Assembly (NCBI GenBank): GCA_024672315.1
Contig: GCA_024672315.1_4714.1
Source: a phage
Strand: one strand, 5' to 3'
Length of the DNA: 64,000 nucleotides
Shown here: one piece after another, positions 2,513 through 49,740 of the stretch
How the letters are laid out: each line of letters starts with the position of its first letter
Numbering within the stretch: the stretch's first letter is position 1
Translations under genes and position numbers: made by a program
The notes under the pieces: model-generated
What the model was told of the DNA's origin: nothing
Databases searched by the model: none
What the model saw: only the letters and a program-made list of their open reading frames with translations

Positions 2513-2536
2513 CACTTAAGTAATATAGCCGTGAAA
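2513..2536 (-). promoter_or_regulatory. conserved 24-bp motif, candidate phage promoter for gene 1832-2488
   Basis: Plus-strand CACTTAAGTAATATAGCCGTGAAA; 24 nt upstream of ATG 2488. Confidence 0.45.
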
Positions 2537-2638
2537 AATGTTGGATTAAGTTAAATACGGCAACCGCAACTAATTTTATAGGCTTTTAGCCTAAACCAAT
2601 CATCTTCGGAATCATCATCTTTGAAACAGGAACCTATC

Positions 2639-3460
2639 ATGGAAAAAGTATTTGTTTGTAAGTTGTTTACTAACGGCAATAGCCAACCAATGTATCTGAC
2701 CGATCCCGTTCTAGGTAATCGTAACAGTACCGTATTCAAAGAAGCTTTCGAATACGCTAAAAATAAAGCCGTGAGAACACTGACGTCCGATGACTGTATC
2801 AATGGTATCACGTGGGCAGAGTTAATCGGTGATGCCGTTCGACACTTCGTTCGGGATGCGAGAAAACGGGAAATCTGTCTCACGACTATTGTTGTGCGTG
2901 AAAACGCAGAAATTTTATCAAACGTTTTGGTTGATTTTAATGACGTTTGTATGTTTAATCCAGAGAACACGTTTGAACAATACCTTACTGCCCTGAACAA
3001 CCAACTCGGTAAAGATATTCATCCCGAATTCGCCAAGTTAACATATCAGTTACTTTTTGACGACGTCGATCCAAATACGAAGATCAATACCAGCTCGTCA
3101 CACCTGGTAAAGAAATACGGATCGGTTCTCGCTACGGCAACACCCACCACCGATGGCGGTTATGATATAGAATTGGATGGTCCATTAAAAGAACAAGAGC
3201 CTACTGGGGTTCGGGCGGTACATCACAACCTCGTCGTTAAATCTGATGGATGCGATGAACATTACGCTATGATAAACGATGAAAACAATTACCGTTTAAG
3301 TCAAGCGATTGGTGTTCTACGCTATACCGAACCAACCGTTGTAGACGATTACACATCGACAACAACGCACACCACGTGTTTCATTTTCATCTATCCCAAT
3401 GAAAGTGTATACATTACTGACTGCTACGGCAATACCGTAGATAGCTTACGTCGTTACTAA
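2639..3460 (+). CDS. hypothetical protein
   Basis: Track start 2621 is TTG; ATG 2639 preceded by AGGAA RBS; followed by classic terminator 3468-3493. Confidence 0.55.
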   Translation: MEKVFVCKLFTNGNSQPMYLTDPVLGNRNSTVFKEAFEYAKNKAVRTLTSDDCINGITWAELIGDAVRHFVRDARKREICLTTIVVRENAEILSNVLVDFNDVCMFNPENTFEQYLTALNNQLGKDIHPEFAKLTYQLLFDDVDPNTKINTSSSHLVKKYGSVLATATPTTDGGYDIELDGPLKEQEPTGVRAVHHNLVVKSDGCDEHYAMINDENNYRLSQAIGVLRYTEPTVVDDYTSTTTHTTCFIFIYPNESVYITDCYGNTVDSLRRY

Positions 3461-3467
3461 TCGTCGA

Positions 3468-3493
3468 GCCTGTCCTTCGGGGCAGGCTTTTTA
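3468..3493 (+). terminator. intrinsic terminator after gene 2639-3460
   Basis: GCCTGTCC-TTCG-GGGCAGGC stem-loop followed by TTTTTA. Confidence 0.75.
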
Positions 3494-3571
3494 TGCTGTT
3501 AAATATCAGGAATAAGAATTAACAAAATAGGAAAATGGTGTGAATATAACACAAAGGGGAGGGAGATGATT

Positions 3572-3688
3572 ATGTTACTCATTCTAATGGAGAGAGCATT
3601 GCTGGCGGGTATCTGCGCATTCTCTGTTAAACACGCTGTTGCTATCATGGCTGAAGAAAGGCGTAATACGCATAATGTATTACGCTGA
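3572..3688 (+). CDS. small hydrophobic peptide (38 aa), speculative
   Basis: Below track threshold; strong RBS GGGGAGGGAG 6 nt before ATG 3572 (in-frame ATG also at 3566); product MLLILMERALLAGICAFSVKHAVAIMAEERRNTHNVLR. Confidence 0.3.
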   Translation: MLLILMERALLAGICAFSVKHAVAIMAEERRNTHNVLR

Positions 3689-3797
3689 AAACACTGTGTG
3701 CATTAGTGTATGACGAGAAATCGTCGAGGCCCCCGTCTTCACGAGGGCCAACACCTATGCATGATTATCCATCGTCTGTTAAACAAAGGTTATAAAC

Positions 3798-4106
3798 ATG
3801 AGCAATTTGAACGTTGAATTTACTTCAACAACGCCTGTCATGAATGGTGTTGGCACTGAAACCAAAATCGTATTAGAACCCATTCCAGGGTTACGCGATC
3901 TCGGTGATTTTTATCCACTGATGCCGCGTATACGGAAGGCCTTAAACAGTATCGATCTTGATTCCAATAAAGATTTCCAACACGATACGGAAAATACCGA
4001 TCATGTATTGCTGCCATCAGGGATCGCAAAATTCACCTACACGCAAACATTGAAAGCCTCCGATGGTGAAATCCGTCGTTTTATCGTTGAAGTAGAAAGC
4101 GCATAA
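3798..4106 (+). CDS. hypothetical protein
   Basis: 102-aa ORF, ATG with AAAGG RBS; ends 5 nt before hairpin 4111-4142. Confidence 0.5.
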   Translation: MSNLNVEFTSTTPVMNGVGTETKIVLEPIPGLRDLGDFYPLMPRIRKALNSIDLDSNKDFQHDTENTDHVLLPSGIAKFTYTQTLKASDGEIRRFIVEVESA

Positions 4107-4110
4107 AAAC

Positions 4111-4142
4111 CATCCTCCCAACCCGTAAGGGAAGGGAGGATG
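4111..4142. terminator. CCTCC-family hairpin H1 at convergent junction
   Basis: CATCCTCCC-AA-CCC-GTAA-GGG-AA-GGGAGGATG between stops at 4106 (+) and 4160 (-). Confidence 0.6.
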
Positions 4143-4159
4143 AAATATGCCGTTAAACG

Positions 4160-4789
4160 TTATTCAACAAACCCCGCATTCAACAGATTGTCGTAAACAC
4201 GATTAGCGACATCAACAGGAGAATGTGTGTTACTGGTGTCTATACACAACGTTTTCGCGTCGCCGAGATAGTCCATAAAATCCATGTAACGATAACGTCG
4301 TTTATTGAATGTCGCTTCATCGATGTTATCAAACATCTGATGTTTAGCGTGGCGAACACGGAACCGTCTTAAATACGTAGGATAGTCAATATCCAGATAA
4401 ACGTAGTAAGACGGCATGATAATAGACGGTAAGTTCGGCAACAACGCATCAAACAACTTAACGTTAGCATCATTAACCTGATAAACGTACGTCGAAGCAA
4501 TCGAACGATCGCTAAGCACAGTCTTCCCTTCGTTAAGGGCTGGATGAATCACCTTGTTGAAGAGATGATTGCGTTGCGACATCATCGCCAATAGTTCAGT
4601 TTCTGGATCGAATCTGTTCGTTGGAGTCTGATCTTCCAGGATAAGTTTACGAATGGCTTCTCCGTAGAGCGTACCACCAGGCTCACGTACGACACAGACA
4701 TTGTTTAAACGGCTGTGTAAAGACGAGATAACCGAACTCTTTCCTGAATAATCCAGGCCTTCAATAACGATATATTTATTACGAGACAT
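4160..4789 (-). CDS. tmk: thymidylate (dTMP) kinase
   Basis: P-loop IVIEGLDYSGKSS, REPGGT motif and DR motif (SDRSIAS) in Tmk order; track start 4801 is TTG, ATG at 4789 has GGAG RBS. Confidence 0.85.
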   Translation of the reverse strand: MSRNKYIVIEGLDYSGKSSVISSLHSRLNNVCVVREPGGTLYGEAIRKLILEDQTPTNRFDPETELLAMMSQRNHLFNKVIHPALNEGKTVLSDRSIASTYVYQVNDANVKLFDALLPNLPSIIMPSYYVYLDIDYPTYLRRFRVRHAKHQMFDNIDEATFNKRRYRYMDFMDYLGDAKTLCIDTSNTHSPVDVANRVYDNLLNAGFVE

Positions 4790-4805
4790 TCCCCGCTCCA
4801 ATTAA

Positions 4806-5987
4806 CTATTTCGTTTTCGCCGTCAACGGCTGCGATACCGTAATCTCGACACGATTCTCATCGGTACGTTTAACGATGATAAGGCTGCGTTCATCACCGA
4901 ATGGTGCTGCTACCTTGGAAGCCTCTTTAAGATTTTCAAGAATCTCACCGAAAGCTTCAAATACCGCAAAACCAGAGCTAACATCAATTCTTACTAAATG
5001 TACACGCACGTTGTTTACGGTAATGGTGTCATCCGTCTTGAACCCGCAACAGGAGGGTAGACAGAACTGACCGTCAGCGCAATTAGCTAGGCATGCCTCG
5101 CCACCGAACATTTCTATTAACGTCACCGGTTTAAATGTTTTCTCTGGAAAAGCACTATTAAGGGTATCGTTTCCATTCACGAACCAGATCGTTACTTTAT
5201 CTTCGGAATACACCAGCCGGTACGGTTGGGTTGCGGACGCTTGCGCTTTATGCTGGTTAAATAACTTTGATTTTGTCGCAATCACAGCACGACCTTCGGC
5301 GTCGAAGTACAGAACTTCATACCCAACACATCCGATAAACACACGACGGTTATTAAGTTCCGGAATTCTGACTAATAATGCTTCACCGTTGTATCCGGTA
5401 GGAACAATACCACGTAGGATGATAGATTCATTGTTCAATACTGAGTTGTCCACGACGATGCTTCGCATTACCGCTGGCGTTACTGTTTTATCTGCGGTAG
5501 GTTCAGGTTGCTCGACAATACGGTCAAAAGGTTCGATGGATACCATGGGAACGAAGTATTCAACTATATACTTGTTTTCAGCACCAACGTCCATGACGAT
5601 GATCTGCAAACGCGTAGCATCCGAATTCAATGCCTGTTTCACACGTTCCGCATTAGGAGTATCACGGTCAATATGAATCAAGGCTTTTATCACACCGTCA
5701 TCTTCCAACCATCCCGTTAAAACGCGACCGACGATATCGTTCACGTCACGAATCGGGAAGAGCACTTCAGCGCCATCGAGCACCGCTTCGATTTTACTGC
5801 TAATGACGGGCACCTTACCGTCGTTAAGATGCGCCAACAGACCGGTTATTGCACCTTCACTAACCGGACGTTTTGTCGTCGTACTGACCAACGGTACGAT
5901 AAAACGATCTTCACTGTATTTCTCTGCACCACAGATAACCGGGACTTGAGGACAATAATCAACCAGGCCCCATTCAACCGTATTCAT
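4806..5987 (-). CDS. hypothetical protein with C-terminal Cys cluster
   Basis: 393-aa ORF, ATG 5987 with AAGGAAA RBS; motif CLANCADGQFCLPSCCGF; co-directional and tightly spaced with tmk and resolvase. Confidence 0.55.
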   Translation of the reverse strand: MNTVEWGLVDYCPQVPVICGAEKYSEDRFIVPLVSTTTKRPVSEGAITGLLAHLNDGKVPVISSKIEAVLDGAEVLFPIRDVNDIVGRVLTGWLEDDGVIKALIHIDRDTPNAERVKQALNSDATRLQIIVMDVGAENKYIVEYFVPMVSIEPFDRIVEQPEPTADKTVTPAVMRSIVVDNSVLNNESIILRGIVPTGYNGEALLVRIPELNNRRVFIGCVGYEVLYFDAEGRAVIATKSKLFNQHKAQASATQPYRLVYSEDKVTIWFVNGNDTLNSAFPEKTFKPVTLIEMFGGEACLANCADGQFCLPSCCGFKTDDTITVNNVRVHLVRIDVSSGFAVFEAFGEILENLKEASKVAAPFGDERSLIIVKRTDENRVEITVSQPLTAKTK

Positions 5988-6019
5988 AACGTTTTCCTTC
6001 TTGGGTTTTGTACATGTTG

Positions 6020-6661
6020 CTAACGGCGTTTTGTACCGACCTTCCCGTTTCGATGGTCGTCAAGAATACGCCATTCTTCGAACAGGAGTTCAGCTGCGAA
6101 ATAACCTACGGCGATGCTGTCTATCGCATGCTCATCAAGATTCGCTAACACAACACCGTTTCTGGGTGTGATGTTCATGAGGTTCAACACTTTCTGGCGA
6201 ACATCGTCCTTACCAACACGGGACGTCATGATCCCAACAGCGCGTTTTGCGCTTCGGTTATCAACCCCTAAGAAAGACACCGTAGGATCAAAATCGATAA
6301 CCGTTGTCTGAATCGCTGAAAACAGCTCGCTGAGCGCCATCCCGCTTTGCTTGAAACGACCGATGAACGGTGTCTCACAAGCAACCGCTTGCGGCTGGTA
6401 CTCTTGCAATAACGTTGTCAGCGAACGACGGTGTTCTTGGATACGCGCGGCACGATTACCGTATCCAAGCGCAATATCGCCATCGGGATCGTATCGACGT
6501 GAAGCGTGCCATGTCCCCGCATACAGCAGTTCAATATCTTCGACACGCACGTCCAAACGTAGTAACGACGCACCGAGCGTATCGGTGCCAGGGTCGATTG
6601 CCAGAATATCGTAAGCGTATTCTGGTGGGATCATGGTGTTACAACAGCCTCTACTGACCAT
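6020..6661 (-). CDS. RuvC-like Holliday junction resolvase
   Basis: Motifs ILAIDPGTD (catalytic Asp), AVACETPF (Glu), DEHAIDSIAVGY (His/Asp) in RuvC order; alternative start ATG 6634 gives an ATGA overlap with the upstream gene. Confidence 0.7.
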   Translation of the reverse strand: MVSRGCCNTMIPPEYAYDILAIDPGTDTLGASLLRLDVRVEDIELLYAGTWHASRRYDPDGDIALGYGNRAARIQEHRRSLTTLLQEYQPQAVACETPFIGRFKQSGMALSELFSAIQTTVIDFDPTVSFLGVDNRSAKRAVGIMTSRVGKDDVRQKVLNLMNITPRNGVVLANLDEHAIDSIAVGYFAAELLFEEWRILDDHRNGKVGTKRR

Positions 6662-7443
6662 GGGAAGGTTTTCGCAACAACACCTTCCAGGAAGCGTTCA
6701 ACTTCCGATTGCTCATACACCGAAAGCTTTTCAAACGGTGTTTGGTCTTCGGTTAAACCTACCGCATGAATAGGACCCAGGTCTTTAACCAGGGTAACTT
6801 CGCCTTTAACGCCTTCGCGTTTAACGATGATCGCATGATCGTTAACCTTAGGATCGTACAGCACGCGCATCATGGTTACTGCATCATCCGGTTCATAACC
6901 GAAATCGATGGCAACACGAGCATTCGTCCCTTCATCGTCCAGAAGCTTGCTTAGCGCTTTACAACGGTCTTCAATCCAATCCAACGCAACCACGGTTTCT
7001 TGGCGTAGCTGAACCTCAACTTCTTTTCCTTGTTCGTCGATACGTTTCACGGTAACAAAATCGTGTAATAAACGGTCAGGAAGGAGGGAAGCAATAAGCT
7101 CAACGTTGGGTTCAGGTTTTTCGTTTTCCAGAATGATGGTCGCTTGTGCGTCCAGATGTTCTTTAAAACGGATGTAACGCGTTAATCGCAGAACCTCGTC
7201 TTGGGATTTTGCGTCTTCGGGAATAATCTCCGTCATGACGTTATAGATCTTTTCAGCGAACGTCGGAATTACGGTGATTGTAATTCGTGCTGGCGTACCA
7301 CGCTCCTGGTACTCATCGGCTAACTTCTTCGCCATCCCGTTAAAATAAGTCTGGAGAAACGGTTGCTGCGTTAAAAACATTTTCTCCAGATCGGAATAGC
7401 GATGCTTGCGTGCATGGCCTAGCTTCTTCATGGGCTTTTTCAT
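6631..7443 (-). CDS. hypothetical protein between SbcC-like and RuvC-like genes
   Basis: Track start 7446 is TTG; ATG 7443 with AAGGAT RBS; no Mre11/SbcD phosphoesterase motifs. Confidence 0.55.
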   Translation of the reverse strand: MKKPMKKLGHARKHRYSDLEKMFLTQQPFLQTYFNGMAKKLADEYQERGTPARITITVIPTFAEKIYNVMTEIIPEDAKSQDEVLRLTRYIRFKEHLDAQATIILENEKPEPNVELIASLLPDRLLHDFVTVKRIDEQGKEVEVQLRQETVVALDWIEDRCKALSKLLDDEGTNARVAIDFGYEPDDAVTMMRVLYDPKVNDHAIIVKREGVKGEVTLVKDLGPIHAVGLTEDQTPFEKLSVYEQSEVERFLEGVVAKTFPWSVEAVVTP

Positions 7444-7464
7444 CAACAGAAATCCTTATTTGTC

Positions 7465-9921
7465 TTAAATAATCGTGACGTGTTCGTTATATGTTTCAGG
7501 GAGAATGATGTTCGTTTTATCAAGAACCATACACTCGGCTTTACGGAATGATGCATGGTTGATCACATAGTGGCTGATGAACCACACCTGGCTTACGCGG
7601 TGACCATCAACCAGACGACGAACAAAATCCATGGCATTAGATTGGTGCTGAGGATCAAATGTTGATGCGAATTCATCTAACATCAACGGATAATCCGTGA
7701 ACCCTTTGTAATGCATCATCGCGATGATGAACGCAATGTTGATAATTTCCTTTTGTCCCTTACTCCCATAAACAATATCTTTTCGCGGTGTCGGATACTT
7801 CTCAGTTAAAAGCGGAAAACGATAGTTCAATCCTTGCGCGTCGATAGCACACGGGAGTATCTGAAGTTGGTATTCCCAAATACTCGCAATGATACCGTTC
7901 ATGTACTCAACGAACGCGTTGATGGGACCCGCAATTGTTTCGGCAATCAGTCCGTTGGATGGACTTAACTCATCCAGAACAAGTTGTGCGTAACCGAGCT
8001 GTTCTTCCACCTCTTTTTGTGTCGTTTCCAACTGAGCCAGAAGCTGCTGGTCGGTTTTAGCTTCCTGTAACTGCTGTTCGACATGACTTATTCGGCGAAC
8101 CGTATCAGACATCGCAGCACGTAACGATTTCGTGTAGAGGTGTTGCAGATACTCTAACCACAGTTGGGTTAACGCTTTATCGCTGTTATCAGAACGCACC
8201 TGATCTTCCATAATCGCCGTAATGGTTTCCAGTCTACCTTCCGTAGCTGTGATGGCTTGTGTTAACCGCTCAACGGTTGTTAACAACTCTGTCCTGTTCT
8301 TATAAAGCGATTCTCGGCGTTGCTGTAACGGTTCAACATCAACCGCTTGTACACGTTCGAGCATACCTTGAAGATGCTTCCGTTCTTGTTCGGCTTGTGT
8401 GTAACGCGCAAGTTTCTCAAACGCAAGCAACCAATCGTTAATGATTCCAATGCTGCGGAATCCTAAACCGTTTTTACGTCCTTCTTCCAGCAGATTATCC
8501 CACATGGGTTTAATGGCGTAATAATCCTTCGTCCAACGCGTTAACTGACGATGCTGTTCCATCCAGAGCGTATAGCGCTGAACCTTCTCGCTAAGCTCAG
8601 CTAACGATTTCTCTTGTTCTTCAACCCAAGCACGACCCTTCTGAATACGCTGTTCAATACCCGCTTTGCTGGTCTTCTCTGTTTCACCAACATGAAAGCG
8701 ATAGTTGCATTTTGGACAGCTGGTCTGGGGTTGATGGTTAAGGTGGTCAAGATGCGCTTCTAAATCGGCTAACGCATGTTTCGCGTTACGCAAACGCATT
8801 CTTGCCGCCTCTTCCTCCTTGATGTAAGCTTCAGCATCGTAAACATGATAGGTGTTGTCGGTATCAATCCATTCTTGGAGTAATTCTGTTAACGGAGCCT
8901 GAACTTGCGTGAGCTGTTGTAAACAAACCGCAGCGTCCAGATTCATCGTTAAAAGCTCACCTGGATGATCTTGCTGAAGTTGTTCGTCCAAACAGGCAAG
9001 GCGGGCTTTAATCTGATCGATATCACCTTCACCAGACTGTTTCAACTGGTCAAGGATATTATCGATGCCCAACAGCTCGTCAACCTGACTTTCGAGTTTT
9101 GCATTCGCATTCGCGAGTTGTTCTCTTAGTTCAGCCAGATTCTGCTGTTCTTGTTGCGATGTTCCTCCTTGGTAACGAACAACCGCACGTAGAAGCTCGC
9201 GATTAAAATGATGGGCACGTTGTGCGGATTCCAGAAGCTGTCGTTGATCAACATCGCTATCGAATAACGGCAATCCCATCATCGCTTCGAGTGCTGAGCG
9301 TTGCTGCTTTAACTCTGCTTCTAATCCCTGGTGGTCGGTGCCGGTGTATTTCGCTTCAATACGCTGTGATGTTTCAACCAACTTATTCAGTGTGTGTTCA
9401 TTCACCGCTTTCAGTGAACGTACCTGTTGCTTAACCACCTGAAACAATTCAAGTGCGTAATCGACGTTAACCGGACATATCTGCGTTAATCGTTCGCGAC
9501 GTTTCATCGGCCCCATTTCGGTGAACTGGTAAGCCGTTTCGTAACCTAACAACAAACGAATGGTGTCGTCATTAAGTTCAAAATGTTCCTCGATTAGTTT
9601 CCACTGAGCGGGTTGTGTGCCACCACCGTTCAGGTTCTCGCTGTCGTTAACGTAGAACTCATGCTTAAACCCTTTTTCTAAACGACTGATAAGACGGTAT
9701 TGCTTATTACGGTGTTCACAGCGGTATTCGTAATACCCGTCTTTATCAAAATCGGCACGCTCAGGAACGGTCGGATACAGCAAAGGCAATAGACTACTCT
9801 TACCCGAACCGTTGCTGCCTAAAATGAGTTGTACGGGATTATCTGGCCGGATGACCAGCTCCCGAATCATCCCGGTATCAAAACGATTGAATCCACGTAA
9901 GTGGAGATAGGTGCATCGCAT
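7465..9921 (-). CDS. SbcC/Rad50-like ATPase with zinc hook
   Basis: Walker A GSNGSGKSS, long central coiled-coil with CPKC hook, signature-like YGSKGQKEI, Walker B LMLDEF, H-loop ISH; start placed at ATG 9921 (AAGGAT RBS, gives Rad50-like N-terminus); in-frame ATG also at 9984. Confidence 0.8.
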   Translation of the reverse strand: MRCTYLHLRGFNRFDTGMIRELVIRPDNPVQLILGSNGSGKSSLLPLLYPTVPERADFDKDGYYEYRCEHRNKQYRLISRLEKGFKHEFYVNDSENLNGGGTQPAQWKLIEEHFELNDDTIRLLLGYETAYQFTEMGPMKRRERLTQICPVNVDYALELFQVVKQQVRSLKAVNEHTLNKLVETSQRIEAKYTGTDHQGLEAELKQQRSALEAMMGLPLFDSDVDQRQLLESAQRAHHFNRELLRAVVRYQGGTSQQEQQNLAELREQLANANAKLESQVDELLGIDNILDQLKQSGEGDIDQIKARLACLDEQLQQDHPGELLTMNLDAAVCLQQLTQVQAPLTELLQEWIDTDNTYHVYDAEAYIKEEEAARMRLRNAKHALADLEAHLDHLNHQPQTSCPKCNYRFHVGETEKTSKAGIEQRIQKGRAWVEEQEKSLAELSEKVQRYTLWMEQHRQLTRWTKDYYAIKPMWDNLLEEGRKNGLGFRSIGIINDWLLAFEKLARYTQAEQERKHLQGMLERVQAVDVEPLQQRRESLYKNRTELLTTVERLTQAITATEGRLETITAIMEDQVRSDNSDKALTQLWLEYLQHLYTKSLRAAMSDTVRRISHVEQQLQEAKTDQQLLAQLETTQKEVEEQLGYAQLVLDELSPSNGLIAETIAGPINAFVEYMNGIIASIWEYQLQILPCAIDAQGLNYRFPLLTEKYPTPRKDIVYGSKGQKEIINIAFIIAMMHYKGFTDYPLMLDEFASTFDPQHQSNAMDFVRRLVDGHRVSQVWFISHYVINHASFRKAECMVLDKTNIILPETYNEHVTII

Positions 9922-10035
9922 GCTATGATAATCCTTCTTCGATACCTTCTGAACCACGGGTTCAGAATGCGAAGCTGAAGCCATACTTCAGCGTTATTTT
10001 CTATATCGTTATTTAAATCAGTAGGAGATTACAGC

Positions 10036-11124: not shown

Positions 11125-11144
11125 AAAAAAGAAATGCAATACAA

Positions 11145-11179
11145 CCTCCTTCCCTAGCCATCAAGGCCGGGGAAGGAGG
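11145..11179. terminator. CCTCC-family hairpin H2 (variant loop) at convergent junction
   Basis: CCTCCTTCCC ... GGGAAGGAGG stem; A8 run 14 nt upstream on plus strand. Confidence 0.55.
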
Positions 11180-11194
11180 ATTATAGTTTATTTA

Positions 11195-11584
11195 TTAACG
11201 CGTTGCATTCTGGATGATTTCTTTTCCAATCTTAACCAAAGCGGGTATCTGTACAGCGGTTGCGCCTCGATGACGAAACGCGGTCGTTAACGCAGTATCG
11301 ATACTCACCGCACGTCCATGAAGACGATCGAAATAGACTTGAGTGATTGCGGTAGCGTAATCCTTTCGCTGTTTCTTGGTTTGGCTCAACAGCGCCGCAC
11401 TATGACTAACGATGAAGTAAGCGATTAAGAAGAACGCCGCTGAACGCGAACCGGGTAGAAAACCTTGTCGCTTAGGGAGCATCTCACAATCGCGAACAGA
11501 ATTATCGTTCGCCAGCTCTTCCATGTCAACGCAGCATAATTTTGCATAGGTGTGGAGATAGTGGGTAAAAGTTGAATTTAACAT
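11195..11584 (-). CDS. hypothetical small membrane protein
   Basis: 129 aa, GAGGAA RBS; hydrophobic AAFFLIAYFIVSHSAALL. Confidence 0.5.
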   Translation of the reverse strand: MLNSTFTHYLHTYAKLCCVDMEELANDNSVRDCEMLPKRQGFLPGSRSAAFFLIAYFIVSHSAALLSQTKKQRKDYATAITQVYFDRLHGRAVSIDTALTTAFRHRGATAVQIPALVKIGKEIIQNATR

Positions 11585-11689
11585 TTTCTTTCCTCGATTG
11601 CCATGAGTTCAATGTATAGCTTAAACGTCACAGAACGACGTATAACGGTTTGTTTTAATTTCTAAGGGGTTTCCCTATCTAAGATTGAA

Positions 11690-12052: not shown

Positions 12053-12053
12053 A

Positions 12054-12479: not shown

Positions 12480-12494
12480 GTTCGATTCCTCGTA

Positions 12495-15028: not shown

Positions 15029-15031
15029 GCG

Positions 15032-39775: not shown

Positions 39776-39809
39776 TTCTTACGATCCTTTTTATTTATTC
39801 GGTTATGTG

Positions 39810-41606
39810 TCAATCGATTATGTCGTGATCGTTAATTTCTACAATTTCTTCATCGAATCGACCGACGTCTTTCTTCAAGCCTGCATTGGTTGCTGCAACG
39901 TCATTTGCAATTTGTGGAGTAATGATTAACCGACCACGCTCGTCGATAGGTGCGTACATACTGAACTTCTGACGTCCGGTTGGTTCGGAGTGCGGAAGAT
40001 TCAGATAGCTTGCACAGAACGGGATGGAACCACTAACCAAACGACTCTCGTCAGCCAATGCAGCACCGCCTGCATTTTGGCTCTGGAGAACAACATGTGT
40101 GCTCACTTTGAACAGCATGCAATCACCAGGTGACTGAATCGATGTTGCCACTTTCTCACGTTTATCACGATTGCTCTGGATATTGAGAATCGCTTCCGTT
40201 GCAACTTGATTTCGCAACGCCTTCTGTACATCGCGATTGGTCATCTCTTTACGGTTGTTCTGTCGTTTACCACGTTCTGTGGTTTTAAGATGGAACCCCA
40301 GTTTAAAGATGCTCTTACGCACATCCTCCATGACATATTCCAACACCATCAGTTCCTTACCGAACATCGTCGTGGTATCAACACGACTCATTTCGATAGT
40401 AACATTATCAATCAGATACGCCATAAATTCGTAGAAGTCGTCGCAAGGAATATTTTCCTGTTTGAACTTCTTCTGTTGAATCTCGTCAACGTAAAGATCG
40501 AGACTGTCGATGTGGTGGTTTACATCACGCAACAAACGCGCATCCGCATTGTTGTTATTAAAGATAATCAAACCGAGTAATGTACGCCAATGGTCTGGCG
40601 CATTCGCGAACTCTTCAACCGGATAGTCTTCCGGAAAACGATCGTAATAACGGTCGATGAGATATAAGAACGCACCGACAAGGCCAAGAACAATACGTTC
40701 CGTGCCTCCACGTCTTACAGCGATTTGAATATCAGGATGTTTATAACGTACAGCGCTAGCGCTACGGCTTTTACCGCTTTTGCTGATACTAAAGCCTTTA
40801 GGAATAACCCCCATGGTGCGATAGATTACCCATTGGTCGCGCGGAAAATCACGTTCAGCAAGGTTCCGTCCGGTTACGGCTTCGACACCTGCAAAACGTC
40901 GGAAACACTCACCCACCCCGTACTTCGCAAAGAGATAGTGACCCAGTGTGGTTACGCTGGTGTGGTTGATGTTGTCACCGTTCACTTTACTTTGTTTGGT
41001 AAGATGATAGATTTGCGACCAGGGTAATGACAGGTAATGACGATAATCGATACCGGTCGGTGTATCATTGCTCAGGAACTGATACGGTGTACGTTTAACC
41101 GTGATTTTGTCACGCGGAAGCATGATGAACGCCATGTCTTTCGTGTAACTGATTACCGGGTCAGCGAGCACCGCACTGAGAATGAAGTTCGCACCACGTA
41201 GACGCATTTTACCACCCTGACCTACCGCGGGTAATAGGAGAGGGTGTCGGATAATGCAGTAGTCCTTTCCGGGTTCACGACGGTCACCTGATTCCATCGC
41301 GCCGTACCAGCGGAATTCTAGCATCACCATAAACACATCGGAAGGCGCAAGGTCGAAGGTCAGCTTACCGCTATCCTTCCCTTTGGTTTTCTTTCCTCCG
41401 CTTAAGTAGTGGAACTGTTCGCGGGCCATACAGCGACGCAGGCCATGATACACCAGATCCTTAGGTAAACTATCTTTGCTGTTCCGCCAAAGACGATCAA
41501 CATAGGACTCAACATCTTGCATCTTATCGACGACGATGTTGCGTGCTATCTTCTCGTTCATCTTCGGTGCAAGCTCAGCGACAGCTTTGCAGAATCTAGG
41601 ATCCAT
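39810..41606 (-). CDS. hypothetical protein
   Basis: Track start 41609 is GTG; ATG 41606 with AAAGGAG RBS; 598 aa; no polymerase or ligase motifs. Confidence 0.55.
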   Translation of the reverse strand: MDPRFCKAVAELAPKMNEKIARNIVVDKMQDVESYVDRLWRNSKDSLPKDLVYHGLRRCMAREQFHYLSGGKKTKGKDSGKLTFDLAPSDVFMVMLEFRWYGAMESGDRREPGKDYCIIRHPLLLPAVGQGGKMRLRGANFILSAVLADPVISYTKDMAFIMLPRDKITVKRTPYQFLSNDTPTGIDYRHYLSLPWSQIYHLTKQSKVNGDNINHTSVTTLGHYLFAKYGVGECFRRFAGVEAVTGRNLAERDFPRDQWVIYRTMGVIPKGFSISKSGKSRSASAVRYKHPDIQIAVRRGGTERIVLGLVGAFLYLIDRYYDRFPEDYPVEEFANAPDHWRTLLGLIIFNNNNADARLLRDVNHHIDSLDLYVDEIQQKKFKQENIPCDDFYEFMAYLIDNVTIEMSRVDTTTMFGKELMVLEYVMEDVRKSIFKLGFHLKTTERGKRQNNRKEMTNRDVQKALRNQVATEAILNIQSNRDKREKVATSIQSPGDCMLFKVSTHVVLQSQNAGGAALADESRLVSGSIPFCASYLNLPHSEPTGRQKFSMYAPIDERGRLIITPQIANDVAATNAGLKKDVGRFDEEIVEINDHDIID

Positions 41607-41645
41607 CACACACTCCTTTCAGAAAGTTGCTTAAGCAGATTAAAG

Positions 41646-43082: not shown

Positions 43083-43232
43083 CGTCAACCTCCATCTGAT
43101 TGAAAACTATCACGCATAACGCATTTCCCTTTTCTTGTTCTTATCGAGCCGACAGCCGACGGTTTCAGTATCGTTCCTAGCGCGAGAACGACCTTACGTG
43201 TTGTCTATGCCTTATTCATCGCAGGCGTCTGT

Positions 43233-43256
43233 CACCTAGGTAATGTAAGCGTCAAA
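43233..43256 (-). promoter_or_regulatory. conserved motif, candidate promoter for gene 41646-43082
   Basis: CACCTAGGTAATGTAAGCGTCAAA, ~150 nt upstream of ATG. Confidence 0.45.
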
Positions 43257-43290
43257 TTTTTTCTATTCGCAACGATAAACGGCATAGAAA

Positions 43291-43320
43291 CCTCCCCCAA
43301 CCCTTACGGGCTGAGGGAGG
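43291..43320 (-). terminator. CCTCC-family hairpin H6 downstream of major virion protein gene
   Basis: CCTCCC ... CCC-TTAC-GGG ... GGGAGG, about 100 nt past stop; promoter motif 35 nt further on minus strand. Confidence 0.55.
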
Positions 43321-43419
43321 CTGACTTATGTATCACGGTGCCGGATGAATGTCCGGTGCAATGAAACCATCCGCAACGTTGTCGTCAAGAATATCATCCA
43401 ACGAAGCAGCTACGGTAGT

Positions 43420-45642
43420 TCAGTTAGTCTGAACAGGCAGCTTGATGTTTTCAGTGTAGACCTTACGCAGGTTCACAACGTTAATCAGACCCAGCAGCGG
43501 GCAGTTGTTAACGAAGCGGCAGCGCGGCTGAACCATGGTTTCTTTAGAAACCTGACCGTTACGGGTAACCTGAGCAACAGATACCAGTTCCGGTACATAC
43601 AGGAACATACCGAAGGTCAGCGGATCCGGAGAACCCTGGATACCACGAGACAGGGTCACGAAGATCTTATCACGCAGCATGACGTTCGGGTTATCTACAA
43701 CCACGAAGTTGAAGCTTACACCAACGGTACGGAAATCACCATCGGTCTGCAGGAACTGCGGGATGTAGTTGTCAGTTGCTACTACGCAACGCGGTTTCTC
43801 ATCAGCGTTGGAAGACAGCAGCTGCAGAGCTGGCTGATAACCAGACTCGGAGTACATGCGGTATGCCATTTCACGAATCACGTTCATGATCGCAGCAGAC
43901 ACTTCAGCACGACGTTCTGCAGTGGTGGTACCCTGAACAGATTTCTCCAGGTCCAGATTGATTTCTTCGAACCACGGACGGATCAGGTAACGACCGAAAC
44001 CTTCGATCTGGATGTCGCCGAACTGACGGAAGCGAGAGGTCGCAACCGCTTTCAGTGCGTCTTTGTAGCTGAACAGTTTCTCAACCATCAGGTTGTCGAA
44101 ACGTGCGTTAGCAGCCTGGATCAGAACGTCCAGGTCAGCAGCGTTTTCTTCCCAATCCAGCGGACGAGGAATGGAGAACGGAGCCAGCAGGCCGATTGCG
44201 TAACGTTCTTGCTTCATGTTGAAGTCAAGGTGCTTACCGCGTTCACGACGGTTGCTGTTGTTACGACGGATACGCAGTTCGTAACCAACCAGTTTGAAGC
44301 TCAGGTCTTCAGCCAGCTGTTTGAACTCTTCGCTCTTACGCGGTTGTTCGATGTTGTCCTGATCAACCAGGCGATACAGTTCAGCGTTAGCGCCGTTAAC
44401 ACGCAGACCGGCTTTCTCTACGTTGGAAGAACCGTAAACTTCGATTGCCAGCTGAGCAGCGGATTTCGAATCGATGATGTCCTGCAGCGCTTCAGCTCGT
44501 GCACCTTTAACGTCAACGGTGTGCTCATCAACGAAGATGGAGTGGGTGTCGAACGCCAGGGTCATTTTGCGGAAGTCGCCTTCCAGGGATTTCTGGAAAC
44601 CGTTGGTGATCAGACCAGATACGTCGAACGGTACGTAAGAGGTTTTGCTGTGCTTGGTAGATTTGATTTCCACCAGGATTTTGGTCAGCGTGATCTGAGC
44701 ATCCAGCGCATCGGTGTTGTCGCTGTAACCGTTAGCCAGAATGCTATCGTCTTCAGCGATACCGATCATGTCGATCAGTTTATCAACAGCCAGGTAAGAC
44801 GTTTTATAAGTTACGCCTTTAATTTCGATGTCGCGCGGAGCAACGATAGTTTTGTCAACGAAGTACTGCGCGTTAGCATCGTCAGCACGATAGATCGGAT
44901 GCAGATCGGTCACGTCGTTGGACAGAACGTCGTTGTACATGAACGCATCCAGCAGCGGACGACGTACCCAATCAGCCGGAGTACCGTCAGCGTTACGGCG
45001 CAGGTGGTTGAACACCAGCGGACGACGGAAAGATACATCGTAACCGATCTGGTTCGGAGCCAGAACGATGGTGTTGTACAGTTCGTTACCCATGCGGCTC
45101 AGACGAGAAGCCTTCACGTTGAACACAACGGAGTACGGCATCATGTCACGCAGTTCTTTCTGGTCGTAGGACAGCTGAACCAGTTCTTCAGATTCGCAAC
45201 CGCAGGAATCAGCAGCCATCATGACGAAGTTAGAGCTGTCAACTTCACGGCCAGACGGAGTGGTGCTGATGTTCATGGAACGTGCTTGTTTAGCATATTC
45301 CACCGGGTTGCCATGAGCCAGCATGATCAGTGCTGCTGCACGAGCCTGCTGTGCGTTCATGGTGAACAGCTGTTCTTCAATACGCTGCTTCTCTTCCGGA
45401 GTGGTGGTTTCGAAGCCCAGCATGGACAGAACCGGTTCTTCTGCTTTACGGATGTCGCTGCTGAAGCTCTTAACATCCATTTCGTTAACCAGTTTGTCCA
45501 TGGATTTGAAATCAACCTTAGAAGCAGATTCCATAGACAGGAAGGTGTTCTCCAGACCTTTGTCTGCTGGTTTGCTACCATTAGCGGTCAGGAACTGGCG
45601 AGTGGCCGCGACCTGTTGGCTAAGAAGGGTTTTATCATTCAT
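43420..45642 (-). CDS. major virion structural protein, tentatively major capsid (tail sheath not excluded)
   Basis: 740 aa; extreme enterobacterial codon bias; AAGGAT RBS; size fits large-phage capsid proteins; N-terminal ~160 aa contain several S/A/G-x-E sites. Confidence 0.45.
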   Translation of the reverse strand: MNDKTLLSQQVAATRQFLTANGSKPADKGLENTFLSMESASKVDFKSMDKLVNEMDVKSFSSDIRKAEEPVLSMLGFETTTPEEKQRIEEQLFTMNAQQARAAALIMLAHGNPVEYAKQARSMNISTTPSGREVDSSNFVMMAADSCGCESEELVQLSYDQKELRDMMPYSVVFNVKASRLSRMGNELYNTIVLAPNQIGYDVSFRRPLVFNHLRRNADGTPADWVRRPLLDAFMYNDVLSNDVTDLHPIYRADDANAQYFVDKTIVAPRDIEIKGVTYKTSYLAVDKLIDMIGIAEDDSILANGYSDNTDALDAQITLTKILVEIKSTKHSKTSYVPFDVSGLITNGFQKSLEGDFRKMTLAFDTHSIFVDEHTVDVKGARAEALQDIIDSKSAAQLAIEVYGSSNVEKAGLRVNGANAELYRLVDQDNIEQPRKSEEFKQLAEDLSFKLVGYELRIRRNNSNRRERGKHLDFNMKQERYAIGLLAPFSIPRPLDWEENAADLDVLIQAANARFDNLMVEKLFSYKDALKAVATSRFRQFGDIQIEGFGRYLIRPWFEEINLDLEKSVQGTTTAERRAEVSAAIMNVIREMAYRMYSESGYQPALQLLSSNADEKPRCVVATDNYIPQFLQTDGDFRTVGVSFNFVVVDNPNVMLRDKIFVTLSRGIQGSPDPLTFGMFLYVPELVSVAQVTRNGQVSKETMVQPRCRFVNNCPLLGLINVVNLRKVYTENIKLPVQTN

Positions 45643-45791
45643 TGAAAGTATCCTTTACAGAATTAACTTATATAAGTCGGTCGATAGACCATAGCGTACA
45701 CGCGTGCATGCGCCACTATAGTATCAGTAAACACTTACCGTTATTGAGGTCGTGATACAACACTAAAAATGCCGCATAACTTTTCCCTACG

Positions 45792-46412
45792 TCACAAACG
45801 ACGCAGGCGATAATGGATGGAACGATTGGTGCAATATGAACGGAACAGCGGCAATTGCGCAACTTCCGCAAGACTCATATTAATTCGCAGGTGTTCAATA
45901 ACGGCGCTGTAGTTATCAGCAATACGATCGCTCAATAACTCTTCTGCCAATAAAGGAAGACAATCGACAACAATCGCGATCACATCCTCATTAACATAAC
46001 GCACCCGAACACTCAACGGACGTTTGTCTGGGCTGTAAGTTGGATCCGCCAAACGACGTTCAATATCACGCGGATAGCTCGTCAGTAAATGGTAATAACC
46101 ATTGTCATAACGATTGATGTACTCACACAGCACATCAACATTCTTCTCTGGCGGCAAACCTGTTTCGTCATAGTGATACGCAAACATACCACCAAGCAAG
46201 TTGTTAAGATGAACCGCAGGGTTCGCTTGTTCGTGTTCTTTCGTGATGAAGAAAGGCACGTTCTGGGCTGCGAAATAAAAACCTACATCATTGGGCGATA
46301 GTATGCCGAAAAGACTTTTAGGGTCTAATAACACCTGTAAGTCATCACGCGCATTTCGAATAATCGCGTGTTCTACCCAATTCGGAACGACGAGATATCG
46401 GAGTTCCTTCAT
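45792..46412 (-). CDS. hypothetical protein
   Basis: 206 aa; ATG with AGAGG RBS; divergent from helicase gene. Confidence 0.5.
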   Translation of the reverse strand: MKELRYLVVPNWVEHAIIRNARDDLQVLLDPKSLFGILSPNDVGFYFAAQNVPFFITKEHEQANPAVHLNNLLGGMFAYHYDETGLPPEKNVDVLCEYINRYDNGYYHLLTSYPRDIERRLADPTYSPDKRPLSVRVRYVNEDVIAIVVDCLPLLAEELLSDRIADNYSAVIEHLRINMSLAEVAQLPLFRSYCTNRSIHYRLRRL

Positions 46413-46451
46413 TATGATTACCTCTTTGCAAGTATCGAAAGGATTGAGTCG

Positions 46452-48062
46452 ATGGACCCAAAACAGATAGCCATTAAGATTATTACGTTACTGTTTCGTA
46501 ATGCACAATTGAACCATCCCGATCCCAGTACGATCGAACATGTTAAATCCGTCTTAGATAAAGTCGAACCCCCGAAAAACCATCTCGCTACAGACGTAGA
46601 TAGAGAGGTTTTCAGCAACCTGATGAACACCATTCATTGGATGCTGGAACAACCGTTATCGGAACCTTTCGATAAACAACAGTTGTTACAAAGGATACGT
46701 TTAGATTGCCTTGAACAAAGCAACCTTTACGAGATTCTTGCCGACGGACTGTACGATATCGAAGACGACGCTCATATCAGTAAGGTCTGTTCGCTCTATT
46801 ACAATGAATTACGTAATCTGATTACCCGTCGTCGTGTTTTCGAAACCTTTAAAAACACGTACATGGATATCAGTAACGGGCGACTTGGGGATAAAGAATT
46901 TTTCGATGCGATGGCGAATTTGAAATTATCGCTAGACAGTATCGAAATGGATACCGAAAATCCCGAAGAGATGTCGTGTATGATTGACGGCTTTATCGCT
47001 GACAGTGAAGACGATATCGAGAAAGTTGAACGTATGTTCGTCAAAGCGATGGAACGTAACAGTCCTGAAGGTGGGTTTGTAACCGGCTGGCAAGGCTTTA
47101 ATAAAATGTTGGGGTCGGTCGGCGTTTTACGTCGCGGTACCTTAGGACTGATTGGTGCAATGCAGCACCGGAACAAGTCAGGTGTGTTGTTAAAACTGTT
47201 CACGCATCTGGCACTGTACAATAAACCCCATTTCTTTTTTCCGGAGCGAGCAAAGAAAGCACTACTGATTCATTTGTCAACCGAAAACGAAGTGGAAGAA
47301 AACACGCTTCAAATATACAAGAACATGCGAGAACAGGAAACAGGCGAATATGTCGATATTCGTAAGATTGACCCTCGCGAGGCATCACGTTATGTGTTGA
47401 AGGTGTTCAATGATGCGGGTTTCTCTGTTTGTATGCGTCGTGTTGATGGGATGAGCTATAAACAACTCGCTAATCTCATCGACCATTTCGAACGCATGGG
47501 TTATGAAGTCATGGCGTTGTTCATTGACTATCTGAAAATGTTCTCATCGGAAGGGTTGGATAGAAATGGGCCGACCGGCGCATGGCTCCAAGAACTCTTT
47601 AACAAAGTACGTAACCTCTGCAGCGTTAAACGTATTTTAGGTATGACCGTACACCAGCTGTCATCCGATGCGAAGATGCGTGCGCGTGATGGCAACGATG
47701 AAGAGTTCGTTGACCAGGTCGCGGGTTTAAGTTACTGGGATGGTTGTAAAGGGATTGACCGTGAGATTGACCTTGAAGTGATTGTTGATATCGTTAAGGA
47801 ACCGGGCAAACGTCAAAGCTGGCAGGTCTTTGCGTTAGGGAAAGACCGTCAACCGGATAACGGTTCAACGAAACCTGAAGACAAACATTTCGCGATGCCA
47901 TTCCAAACCATCGGGATGCTTCCTGATGATTACGGTAAGAAAGCAGTATACTGCCGCAAGGTTGGCGGACAACCTGTCTCCGAGGGAGGTAAAGGTCCGT
48001 GGAACAAGTTCGATGAAAACGCAGCACCGAGTAATGAATTACAATTTGATTTAGAATTTTAA
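46452..48062 (+). CDS. DnaB-like replicative helicase (RecA-fold ATPase)
   Basis: Track start 46368 is GTG; ATG 46452 with AAAGGA RBS; motifs in DnaB order: Walker A-like GAMQHRNKSG, H1a LIHLSTE, Walker B LFIDYL, H4-like TVHQLSSDAKMRAR. Confidence 0.6.
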   Translation: MDPKQIAIKIITLLFRNAQLNHPDPSTIEHVKSVLDKVEPPKNHLATDVDREVFSNLMNTIHWMLEQPLSEPFDKQQLLQRIRLDCLEQSNLYEILADGLYDIEDDAHISKVCSLYYNELRNLITRRRVFETFKNTYMDISNGRLGDKEFFDAMANLKLSLDSIEMDTENPEEMSCMIDGFIADSEDDIEKVERMFVKAMERNSPEGGFVTGWQGFNKMLGSVGVLRRGTLGLIGAMQHRNKSGVLLKLFTHLALYNKPHFFFPERAKKALLIHLSTENEVEENTLQIYKNMREQETGEYVDIRKIDPREASRYVLKVFNDAGFSVCMRRVDGMSYKQLANLIDHFERMGYEVMALFIDYLKMFSSEGLDRNGPTGAWLQELFNKVRNLCSVKRILGMTVHQLSSDAKMRARDGNDEEFVDQVAGLSYWDGCKGIDREIDLEVIVDIVKEPGKRQSWQVFALGKDRQPDNGSTKPEDKHFAMPFQTIGMLPDDYGKKAVYCRKVGGQPVSEGGKGPWNKFDENAAPSNELQFDLEF

Positions 48063-48090
48063 ACGCAAAAAAAAAAAAGATTGTGCGGTT

Positions 48091-48122
48091 CCCTCCTCCA
48101 ACCCGTAAGGGAAGGAGGAGGG
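48091..48122. terminator. CCTCC-family hairpin H7 at convergent junction
   Basis: CCCTCCTCC-AA-CCC-GTAA-GGG-AA-GGAGGAGGG; A12 run 12 nt upstream on plus strand. Confidence 0.6.
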
Positions 48123-48138
48123 GTTATGACCGCTTTGA

Positions 48139-48465
48139 TTAACTTATTGTCATGAATTCATTAGGTGAAAATTTCCAGCCGTTCTCAGTGAGAAGCGTGT
48201 TGAGTTTCGCTGCAACGATAAGCCATGCGTGCATGGCTGTTACGTCGTATTGGCGATTCACTCGACGTTGGTTTTCGATATTGATTTGCTCCTGTTCAGT
48301 GATGTTTGGATAAAGTGCGATAGCGCTGGGTTTACCCAATGCGCTAGTCATCACCGCCGTACATTCACTGATAATGTTGTTTAAGTGGTAGTTATACACC
48401 GTTCCACGCATGACGCGATGACGGCATTCGATAATAGCGTCGTAAATGATTTCTCGAGTAATCAT
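48139..48465 (-). CDS. hypothetical protein
   Basis: 108 aa ORF. Confidence 0.45.
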   Translation of the reverse strand: MITREIIYDAIIECRHRVMRGTVYNYHLNNIISECTAVMTSALGKPSAIALYPNITEQEQINIENQRRVNRQYDVTAMHAWLIVAAKLNTLLTENGWKFSPNEFMTIS

Positions 48466-48471
48466 GATAAT

Positions 48472-48873
48472 TTAAAACATACGGTCGTTTTTAGCACGGG
48501 CATCCATTACCAGATCGTAGATGCCTGCGGTTCGTAAGCACTCTTCGTAGTAACGATGTGTGCCTTCCTCAGCCATCCACGATAGCCCACGACTATCCGC
48601 AACAATAACCAGTTTGTTATTGTTGAACGCACACACCACACGGTAGGTCGCGTTGTTATTCGGATCGCGAGTGATAAGTTCGTAGACGCCGTTAACAGGT
48701 TTACTGAATTCACCATTTAACGGAACGAGTTCGGTAGTACCTTCAGCAAACGTTACGTTGATCGGTGATGGATCTTTAGCGATAACAGTATATTCCACAT
48801 TGTGTTCTTTACTGGTCATAATACCGAAGTAAGAACTGACAGGGGAACGCGGTACACTAAGAATATTAAACAT
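48472..48873 (-). CDS. hypothetical protein
   Basis: 133 aa ORF, 4-nt gap to downstream gene. Confidence 0.45.
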   Translation of the reverse strand: MFNILSVPRSPVSSYFGIMTSKEHNVEYTVIAKDPSPINVTFAEGTTELVPLNGEFSKPVNGVYELITRDPNNNATYRVVCAFNNNKLVIVADSRGLSWMAEEGTHRYYEECLRTAGIYDLVMDARAKNDRMF

Positions 48874-48942
48874 AAATGTTGTCCTCTTAATTGGATTTAG
48901 ATTGTTGAGTATGTGATTGGAAATGAAAACGTTGTTTCGGTT

Positions 48943-49512
48943 TTAGACGATGAGTGACCAGGTGGTAAGCACCCCGCTTGCGAATTCGAGCTTAAGACGT
49001 TTACCGATAAGTTGTTGCTGAATCATCTTCTCGGTGATACGTCGATCATGCTGAACCGCTTTATCAAACGCTTCTTTCGCTTCAGCTTGGTAGAAGTTCG
49101 TTTCTTCGTTTTCGTCGATCTCTTCGAGAGCATCGTCGTCGATGTCAGCAAGTTTCACTCGACCGTTTTCATCAGGTTGTTCTGCAGGTTCATTGTCATA
49201 CGGCGTGTCTTTTGTTGGTGCGACACGATGTTGCAACTCGACCTGTGTTAACATGATCTCCATCTCACCATCGATAGGAATGATTTCATCGGCGCTGCCG
49301 TTTTCGGTCAGCTCCCGACTTTCCAGTAATGTCGTCGTAACAGAGAACACCTCTTCAACAGGAACCTCATCATCGTCGATGGTGTTAACCGTGTTGCTGG
49401 TAACTTCAGCAACGACCATCAAATCAAATGCGTGAGGATCGCCTGGCATTTTGATTCCTGGAAGTTTGTTGAGGTACCAAGGATCAAGAATCATGATTTC
49501 TGGATTAAACAT
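48943..49512 (-). CDS. hypothetical acidic protein
   Basis: 189 aa; ~205 nt leader downstream of promoter motif 49717-49740. Confidence 0.5.
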   Translation of the reverse strand: MFNPEIMILDPWYLNKLPGIKMPGDPHAFDLMVVAEVTSNTVNTIDDDEVPVEEVFSVTTTLLESRELTENGSADEIIPIDGEMEIMLTQVELQHRVAPTKDTPYDNEPAEQPDENGRVKLADIDDDALEEIDENEETNFYQAEAKEAFDKAVQHDRRITEKMIQQQLIGKRLKLEFASGVLTTWSLIV

Positions 49513-49716
49513 CGTATTTTTACCTTTCTATGTTAGGTGGATTGCGGATAGAAGAATCAATGCATAGATTGATCGTTCTATGTTAGAAATTATTGCTGAA
49601 CTGGTTATGGTTATAACGCGTGTTTTCGTATGCTGACGGGTCGCGTATTAATAAGGCCATGACTGTATCCTCGATTATTAAGAGAAATTTACAACGGTAA
49701 CAGTAACCGCTCTTAT

Positions 49717-49740
49717 CACCTAGGTAATGTAGTCGTGAAA
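49717..49740 (-). promoter_or_regulatory. conserved motif, candidate promoter for gene 48943-49512
   Basis: CACCTAGGTAATGTAGTCGTGAAA, ~205 nt upstream of ATG. Confidence 0.45.

Follow-up and report, generated by a model that had tools for sequence, protein, structure and literature searches.

Four copies of a 24-bp motif, here named P1 to P4, were found on the minus strand of a 64,000-nucleotide stretch of phage DNA (GenBank assembly GCA_024672315.1; the whole stretch is called the window below), and these copies are best explained as early promoters read by the virion RNA polymerase of a Goslar-like chimallivirus, a reading to which we assign a probability of about 0.88. Read on the minus strand, like the genes downstream of it, the motif is TTTCACGRCTAYATTACYTNNNTG. 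An earlier note on this DNA had listed four strong copies and proposed a phage-specific promoter that is not of the sigma70 type. All four copies were recovered, the second of them spanning 15049-15072 and not 15052-15072, and the comparisons described below argue for a promoter of the proposed kind.

By its sequence the window is from a Goslar-like chimallivirus. Positions 40000-52000 showed 98% identity across 95% of their length to Escherichia phage vB_EcoM_Goslar, a jumbo phage (237,307 bp) of the Chimalliviridae that is phiKZ-like and forms a nucleus, and no record of the phage collection other than Goslar matched this part of the window. The whole annotated Goslar genome was used as a stand-in for the complete phage.

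A search of the window with the degenerate pattern, allowing up to three mismatches, returned exactly four copies, while none was found in 100 dinucleotide-preserving shuffles. A weight matrix was built from 13 Goslar sites (positions -34 to +6) and used to scan both strands of the window (128 kb). The four copies scored 44 to 47 bits and the runner-up position 8 bits. The strict core pattern TAYATTAC-N5-TG occurred four times compared with 0.33 times expected from composition, in each case on the minus strand. All four copies are intergenic and have the same orientation as the minus-strand gene downstream; no copy was found within coding sequence or with reversed orientation. Measured from the final G of the motif, the ATG follows after 25 nt at P1, 125 nt at P2, 151 nt at P3 and 205 nt at P4, where the ATG of a small open reading frame (ORF) of 25 codons is reached after 57 nt. 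The intergenic placement, the shared orientation and the variable distance to the ATG described in the earlier note hold, the distance over a range of 25-205 nt. A 'partial' copy at 15006-15028 (2.0 bits) and a 'degenerate relative' at 45733-45760 (less than -17 bits), which had also been listed there, failed the weight matrix, and the window therefore has four members of the motif, not five or six.

The genome-wide search suggested in the earlier note was done with Goslar as a proxy. TAYATTAC-N5-TG was observed 13 times, compared with 1.25 times expected, and all 13 sites are on the minus strand. Intergenic DNA makes up 7.06% of the Goslar genome; 12 of the 13 sites are fully intergenic, and the thirteenth overlaps only the doubtful 62-amino-acid ORF gp047. 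Each site is located 25-205 nt 5' of a minus-strand ATG. The predicted starts in Goslar are 2553, 15053, 43252 and 49718, the counterparts of P1 to P4, and 86691, 113783, 142786, 160777, 166055, 172964, 187625, 201930 and 226681. The placement of the sites in the window and in Goslar rules out an equal occurrence inside genes in random orientation, which had been named as an observation that would speak against a promoter. Upstream of the core, eight sites, including P1, P2 and P4, carry TTTCACGRC at -24 to -16, and four, including P3 and the promoter of the gene for chimallin, the nuclear-shell protein, carry an A-tract followed by TTTSAG. The TTT at -24 to -22 is conserved, and most sites continue with CACGRC and are not AT-rich there. 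The third base of the core is C (TACATTAC) in five of the 13 sites.

Constraint on the motif was determined from 14 comparisons of orthologous promoter regions between Goslar and either the window or its relatives in IMG/VR, which contained Goslar itself and two more Goslar-like contigs (82-97% identical to the window). Only two substitutions were present at 252 high-information motif positions, and both represent one Goslar-specific change at -19 of P4 that was counted twice. Flanking non-coding DNA had 58 substitutions at 1432 positions (Fisher p ~0.005 against the high-information positions) and low-information motif positions had 13 at 252 (p ~0.007), both p-values being approximate. Among Goslar-like genomes the conserved motif positions changed about 5-fold more slowly than the flanks. 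With the exception of -19, changes within the motif occurred only where the copies also vary among themselves (-12 Y, -16 R, -6 Y, -2/-3 and -31/-32). A scan of IMG/VR with a 19-nt pattern found Goslar, the two Goslar-like contigs and two unrelated contigs. The unrelated contigs were discarded as chance matches, as they had no DNA similarity to Goslar, lacked the TG and, judged by eye, seemed to match in coding sequence.

According to reviews and original papers, all jumbo phages that encode their own multisubunit RNA polymerases have a conserved motif 5' of their early operons. This AT-rich early motif of about 10 nt has its centre near -10 and serves as the promoter for the virion-packaged polymerase; transcription in phiKZ and phiR1-37 starts 6 nt downstream of the early consensus. 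The phiKZ early consensus was derived here directly from the phiKZ genome. TATATTAC-N5-TG occurred 23 times, compared with 1.9 times expected, and always on the plus strand, which is the gene strand. Of these sites, 22 are located just 5' of plus-strand genes; the remaining one, at 264091, falls within PHIKZ290 and is not preceded by the upstream sequence typical of the others. A further eight or so near-matches, with TATATCAC, TATATCAT or an A replacing the final G, have the same upstream context as the exact sites. Together these sites number about 31, in agreement with published figures of 28 and 32 phiKZ early promoters (for the phiKZ system see Wicke et al. 2020, PMC8244752). Two sites precede PHIKZ054 and PHIKZ260, genes with primary starts from differential RNA sequencing (RNA-seq), and for PHIKZ054 only, the primary start has been linked explicitly to the early motif. 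The likeness of TAYATTAC to early promoters of phiKZ-like phages, suggested with some uncertainty in the earlier note, turned out to be correct, as core, spacing and G are the same in phiKZ.

The phiKZ and Goslar sites share the TATATTAC core (TAYATTAC in the window), the TG five bases further on, the presence in multiple copies on one strand and the intergenic position 5' of early operons. A hairpin terminator of the form CCYCC...GGRGG, with a tail of the TTATG type, frequently comes before a site, and those Goslar sites with A-tract and TTTSAG are close to the phiKZ promoters of chimallin, gp68 and gp121. The two phages differ in the upstream region, which is TTTCACGRC in the majority of Goslar sites (8/13) and the AT-rich TTTAAACAG or TTTGAGAT in phiKZ. 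They also differ in that TACATTAC is tolerated in Goslar, and in the lower number of strict sites in Goslar, where 13 are known from sequence compared with 23 in phiKZ (about 31 with near-matches).

The element was also found upstream of the chimallin gene in more distant phages. It reads TATATTACCTAGGTGA in Goslar, TATATTACTAAATTGA in phiKZ, TATATTACTTAGGTGA in Klebsiella phage Eowyn, TATATTACGTATGTG in Erwinia phage RAY, TATATCACAGGTGTG in PhiPA3 (core form TATATCAC) and TATATTACAAAGTTGA in Ralstonia phage RSL2, and the identity of Goslar chimallin to these homologues is no more than about 23-25%. The TG that follows the core after five bases is invariant in the window, Goslar, phiKZ, Eowyn, RAY, PhiPA3 and RSL2, the starts in the window being predicted ones. 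Another counterpart is the early promoter of Bacillus phage AR9, AAATATATATTAT-(6N)-G+1 (Lavysh et al. 2017, PMC5312081), from which early transcripts accumulate without new protein synthesis (PMC5312081). It has an AT-rich TATATTA-type core near -10, six bases between core and G start, and a virion-packaged multisubunit polymerase in common with the sites described here. AR9 differs in that it lies outside the chimalliviruses and carries uracil in its DNA, and its core ends in T and not in C, with an AAATA extension upstream.

Three Goslar promoters have positional counterparts in phiKZ. The Goslar site at 172964, followed by chimallin (the gp54 homologue) and then the gp55 homologue, corresponds to phiKZ 45568; the site at 160777, followed by the gp68, gp69 and gp70 homologues, corresponds to phiKZ 57984; and the site at 43252, which is P3 of the window and is followed by gp040 and then the gp123 homologue, corresponds to phiKZ 120657. 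All three operons encode subunits of the non-virion polymerase. P3 and phiKZ 120657 are each flanked by the major head gene on one side and the following operon on the other, and each comes immediately after a GC-rich hairpin terminator; in the window this following operon contains the homologue of PHIKZ123. The PHIKZ123 homologue matched PDB 7OGP chain E over its full length with E = 5.8e-41, as well as phrog_2943, and gave E = 1.6e-52 in a tblastn search against phiKZ. According to a review, phiKZ early promoters drive the expression of non-virion polymerase subunits, and gp123 of phiKZ is the subunit that binds the TATG of late promoters.

The gene order at 36880-48062 of the window is that of phiKZ gp118-gp124 in mirror orientation, with a DnaB-like helicase, a small virion-protein gene, the major head protein, the terminator with the early promoter, one gene in place of the two phiKZ genes gp121 and gp122, the PHIKZ123 homologue and a large gene.

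From these comparisons the virion polymerase would read the -10-like core TAYATTAC at -14 to -7 together with a lineage-specific element upstream of it, which would be either TTTCACGRC at -24 to -16 or the A-tract with TTTSAG. Transcription is predicted to start six bases past the core, to within about 1 nt, at the conserved final G of the 24-bp motif. Each promoter would head a minus-strand early operon, and P3 and P4 would each follow closely on the terminator that ends the preceding operon. P3 would drive the operon encoding a subunit of the second, non-virion polymerase, the transcriber of late genes. As P3 would drive this subunit, the promoters would set off the early-to-late cascade, and P3 is a plausible connection between the early and late programmes. 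The genes downstream of the promoters are mostly small ORFs without a known family, which supports this reading. Several RNA polymerase beta-like genes are annotated in Goslar, and five packaged RNA polymerase subunits (gp78, gp196, gp205, gp207 and gp210), with genes outside the 64-kb window, were identified in Goslar virions by mass spectrometry.

Several points weigh against this interpretation. The role of the motif as a promoter in this phage is inferred from sequence; recognition by the virion polymerase and early timing are predictions, and +1 was assigned to the final G by analogy with AR9, phiKZ and phiR1-37. Goslar RNA-seq data (5-60 min; Armbruster et al.) gave early expression of chmA and late expression of the capsid gene, and no promoter motif was described. 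G and C are present in the upstream half, TTTCACGRC, whereas phiKZ promoters are AT-rich in this region. The strand bias of the Goslar sites is by itself weak evidence, since 87% of the Goslar genes are on the minus strand; it is the placement that matters. Finally, the genome pairs in the substitution test were not independent of each other, and its p-values have to be read as approximate.

It is also conceivable, at long odds, that the second (non-virion) RNA polymerase is the one that uses the motif, which would then be a middle or late promoter. Some phiKZ genes, such as PHIKZ054, have both an early and a middle promoter. The published promoters of the non-virion polymerase are different, however, having either a TATG where transcription starts or, near -22, a weak TACT/AT-rich motif. 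Moreover, the motif precedes genes for subunits of this very enzyme. As the non-virion enzyme is absent at the start of infection and the host enzyme is not used by phiKZ-type phages, it could not be the first to transcribe its own genes.

Slightly less probable again is that the motif is not a promoter at all, and instead serves as a repeated operator bound by a phage regulator, acts in RNA as a leader or a processing signal, or is left over from a DNA duplication. The evidence comes from sequence throughout, and some copies are alike over up to about 42 bp, as might be seen after a duplication. Conservation spans about -34 to +2 and then ends, however, with unrelated flanks on either side. 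The copies have no secondary structure in common, and CCTAGG is palindromic in two of them only. The same core and spacing are found family-wide in phages whose proteins are about 25% identical, including phiKZ sites with mapped starts, and the pattern of substitutions indicates constraint on particular bases.

A sigma70 promoter of the Escherichia coli host, with TATATT as the -10 hexamer, is the least credible of these alternatives. TAYATT resembles TATAAT, the motif has a -10-like TAnAnT at a similar distance from the start as an extended -10 promoter, the phiKZ motif has been called an 'extended -10 box', and P2 overlaps a weak sigma70-like match (9/12). The other three copies, however, had no -35/-10 match with hexamers 16-18 nt apart, and sigma70-like matches in the window did not exceed those in shuffled sequence (15 compared with 27.8 +/- 5.9 at 1-16000, and 7 compared with 9.7 +/- 3.2 at 42900-50000). 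The statement of the earlier note that the motif lacks sigma70 spacing is borne out by these results. There is no -35 element; the conserved TTTCACGRC, the invariant C at -7 and the TG at -1/+1 are unlike a sigma70 promoter. Transcription in phiKZ-type phages is independent of the host polymerase, and no homologue of a bacterial sigma factor is known in these phage polymerases. The number of sigma70-like matches at 1-16000 is about 2 standard deviations under the shuffle expectation, and this deficit may reflect avoidance of promoters for the host polymerase.

Two other types of phage promoter were rejected. A hairpin promoter of the N4 virion polymerase type does not fit, as the 24-bp motif contains no conserved inverted repeat. 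Promoters of the T7/SP6 type are about 23 bp long, extend from -17 to +6 and have a CACTATAG-type core. The motif and the T7 promoter have only ACGACT in common and differ in core and start region, and a check of the Goslar annotation found no single-subunit polymerase.

The two kinds of upstream sequence raise the question whether the early promoters of Goslar comprise two functional classes, A-tract with TTTSAG and TTTCACGRC, which we consider doubtful. Such classes might not be equally strong or might not be active at the same time; alternatively, the TTTCACGRC class could need an additional injected specificity factor. In the window the TTTCACGRC class (P1, P2, P4) precedes genes without a known family. 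A division into A-tract promoters for core genes and TTTCACGRC promoters for accessory genes failed, as the promoter of the gp68 homologue is of the TTTCACGCT type.

The coordinates of the promoters, of the genes that follow them and of the neighbouring elements are listed in Table 1.

Table 1. Putative early promoters P1 to P4 in the window, with downstream genes, predicted terminators and the segment adjoining P2
Feature	Position	Strand	Description
Putative early promoter P1	2513..2536	-	TTTCACGGCTATATTACTTAAGTG (plus-strand letters CACTTAAGTAATATAGCCGTGAAA), 47.4 bits; core TATATTAC at -14 to -7; predicted start G 2513
First gene after P1	1832..2488	-	Goslar gp004 homologue, 218 amino acids, no known family
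Predicted hairpin terminator 3' of first P1 gene	1798-1825		
Putative early promoter P2	15049..15072	-	TTTCACGACTATATTACCTTCATG (plus-strand letters CATGAAGGTAATATAGTCGTGAAA), 43.9 bits; predicted start G 15049
43-bp segment	15006..15048	-	directly after the predicted P2 start, following TATATTAC-CTTCAT-G
First gene after P2	14175..14924	-	Goslar gp021 homologue, 249 amino acids, no known family
Putative early promoter P3	43233..43256	-	TTTGACGCTTACATTACCTAGGTG (plus-strand letters CACCTAGGTAATGTAAGCGTCAAA), 45.5 bits; preceded by A-tract AGAAAAAA; predicted start G 43233
First gene after P3	41646..43082	-	Goslar gp040 homologue; ATG 43082 with GGAGG ribosome-binding site; 151-nt leader
Second gene of P3 operon	39810..41609	-	homologue of PHIKZ123, beta-like subunit of the non-virion RNA polymerase
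Predicted terminator of major-head-protein transcript	43278..43321	-	14-bp GC-rich hairpin 43290-43321 and tail TTTCTATGCCGT; z = -5.5
Putative early promoter P4	49717..49740	-	TTTCACGACTACATTACCTAGGTG (plus-strand letters CACCTAGGTAATGTAGTCGTGAAA), perfect consensus match, 45.3 bits; predicted start G 49717
First annotated gene after P4	48943..49512	-	Goslar gp046 homologue, 189 amino acids, no known family; then 48472-48873 and 48139-48465
Predicted terminator of operon upstream of P4	49765..49807	-	hairpin 49776-49807 and tail TTCTATGCTGT; z = -3.0

Nine of the ten downstream proteins tested had no match to a Pfam or PHROG family, the exception being the PHIKZ123 homologue, and scans of the window against Rfam and for transfer RNA (tRNA) genes gave no matches. 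P1 is situated in a divergent intergenic region. It is conserved out to about -34 (position 2547) and has the same sequence in Goslar and in the two IMG/VR relatives. P2 heads a series of eight small minus-strand ORFs without known family that reaches down to about 11195. The roughly 735 bp between P2 and the structural gene at 15807-16700 (15073-15806) are AT-rich (26-41% GC) and contained no ORF longer than 40 amino acids, no Rfam match and no tRNA; this region is unannotated in Goslar as well. A terminator-like hairpin is present in it at 15759-15790.

The first protein of the P3 operon, the gp040 homologue, had no match to a family or to a solved structure. A further protein of this operon (37217-39775, minus strand, 852 amino acids) matched a Cas9 C-terminal domain of Pfam only below the threshold (E = 0.0019, 18.4 bits, cut-off 27), and this match is probably due to chance.

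P4 is spanned by ORF 49583-49771 (minus strand, 62 amino acids), which is Goslar gp047 and starts at an ATG within the terminator tail. A start of transcription at 49717 would leave only the last 25 codons of gp047 translatable, from ATG 49660 after the ribosome-binding site GAGGA. The annotation of Goslar gp047 is probably wrong or too long.

P3 and P4 are located 20-35 nt downstream of strong hairpins, each of which is followed by TTCTATGCYGT. These predicted terminators resemble the phiKZ terminator motif, a hairpin with YTTATKYYGT, and the one upstream of P3 also resembles the phiKZ hairpin 5' of 120657. GC-rich hairpins with the tail TYTATGYYGT were observed at 3466-3499 (plus strand), 43278-43321, 49765-49807 and about 55722-55755 (the last three on the minus strand). 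TYTATGYYGT matched the window five times, compared with 1.2 matches expected by composition, and four of the five matches follow a strong hairpin. The tail includes TATG, which is the late-promoter consensus of phiKZ. In the hairpin at 49776-49807 the inner part is inverted relative to Goslar 49777-49808 (AACCCATCAGGGAA in the window, TTCCCTTACGGGTT in Goslar) with the pairing of the stem kept, which fits selection on structure over sequence.

The 'partial' copy at 15006-15028 forms the 3' end of the 43-bp segment that follows P2, and it is better read as part of an indel. This segment contains an inverted repeat (TTCATGATGC/GCATCATGAA) and a second GTTACCTAAGTG at its end. When the IMG/VR relatives, contigs 3300011560 and 3300045988, were compared at P2, the segment was present in the window and in 3300011560, and absent at the P2 site of Goslar and of 3300045988. 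A related 39-bp segment follows TATATTAC at a different promoter, at Goslar 226649-226691, and no copies of the 39-43-bp segment were found beyond these sites. Directly after the core at two promoters, it could be a regulatory add-on. As a stabilising 5' RNA hairpin the 43-bp segment was rejected, as its fold was no better than that of shuffles (z = -0.55).

The 'degenerate relative' at 45733-45760 (minus strand, ATCACGACCTCAATAACGGTAAGTG), 5' of the major head gene, was rejected as a related element. It lacks TAYATTAC, and about 1,800 other window positions score at least as well ungapped. It has TCACGAC and TAAGTG in common with the promoter motif, and neither the window nor Goslar contains a second copy. 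The likeness may be coincidental, or the sequence may be what is left of a promoter that decayed.

A full-text literature search for TATATTAC returned unrelated papers only, and no published promoter consensus for Goslar was found in the literature searched, which does not disprove its existence elsewhere. Promoters of this kind are already known from phiKZ-like phages, and the feature is real but expected and no surprise to a specialist. What is gained is a usable consensus for Goslar-type phages, TTTCACGRCTAYATTACYTNNNTG with the predicted start at the last G, and a map of 13 predicted early promoters, four of them in the window, for Goslar, the chief model in E. coli of phages that form a nucleus. 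The map can be used for defining early operons and for correcting annotation, as in the case of Goslar gp047, which runs across a promoter. It can also be used for designing early-expression cassettes for the engineering of these phages, for which the phiKZ consensus early promoter has already been employed. Core, spacing and position at key genes have been kept in a family whose proteins are only about 25% identical, and this constrains how the virion polymerase would recognise DNA.

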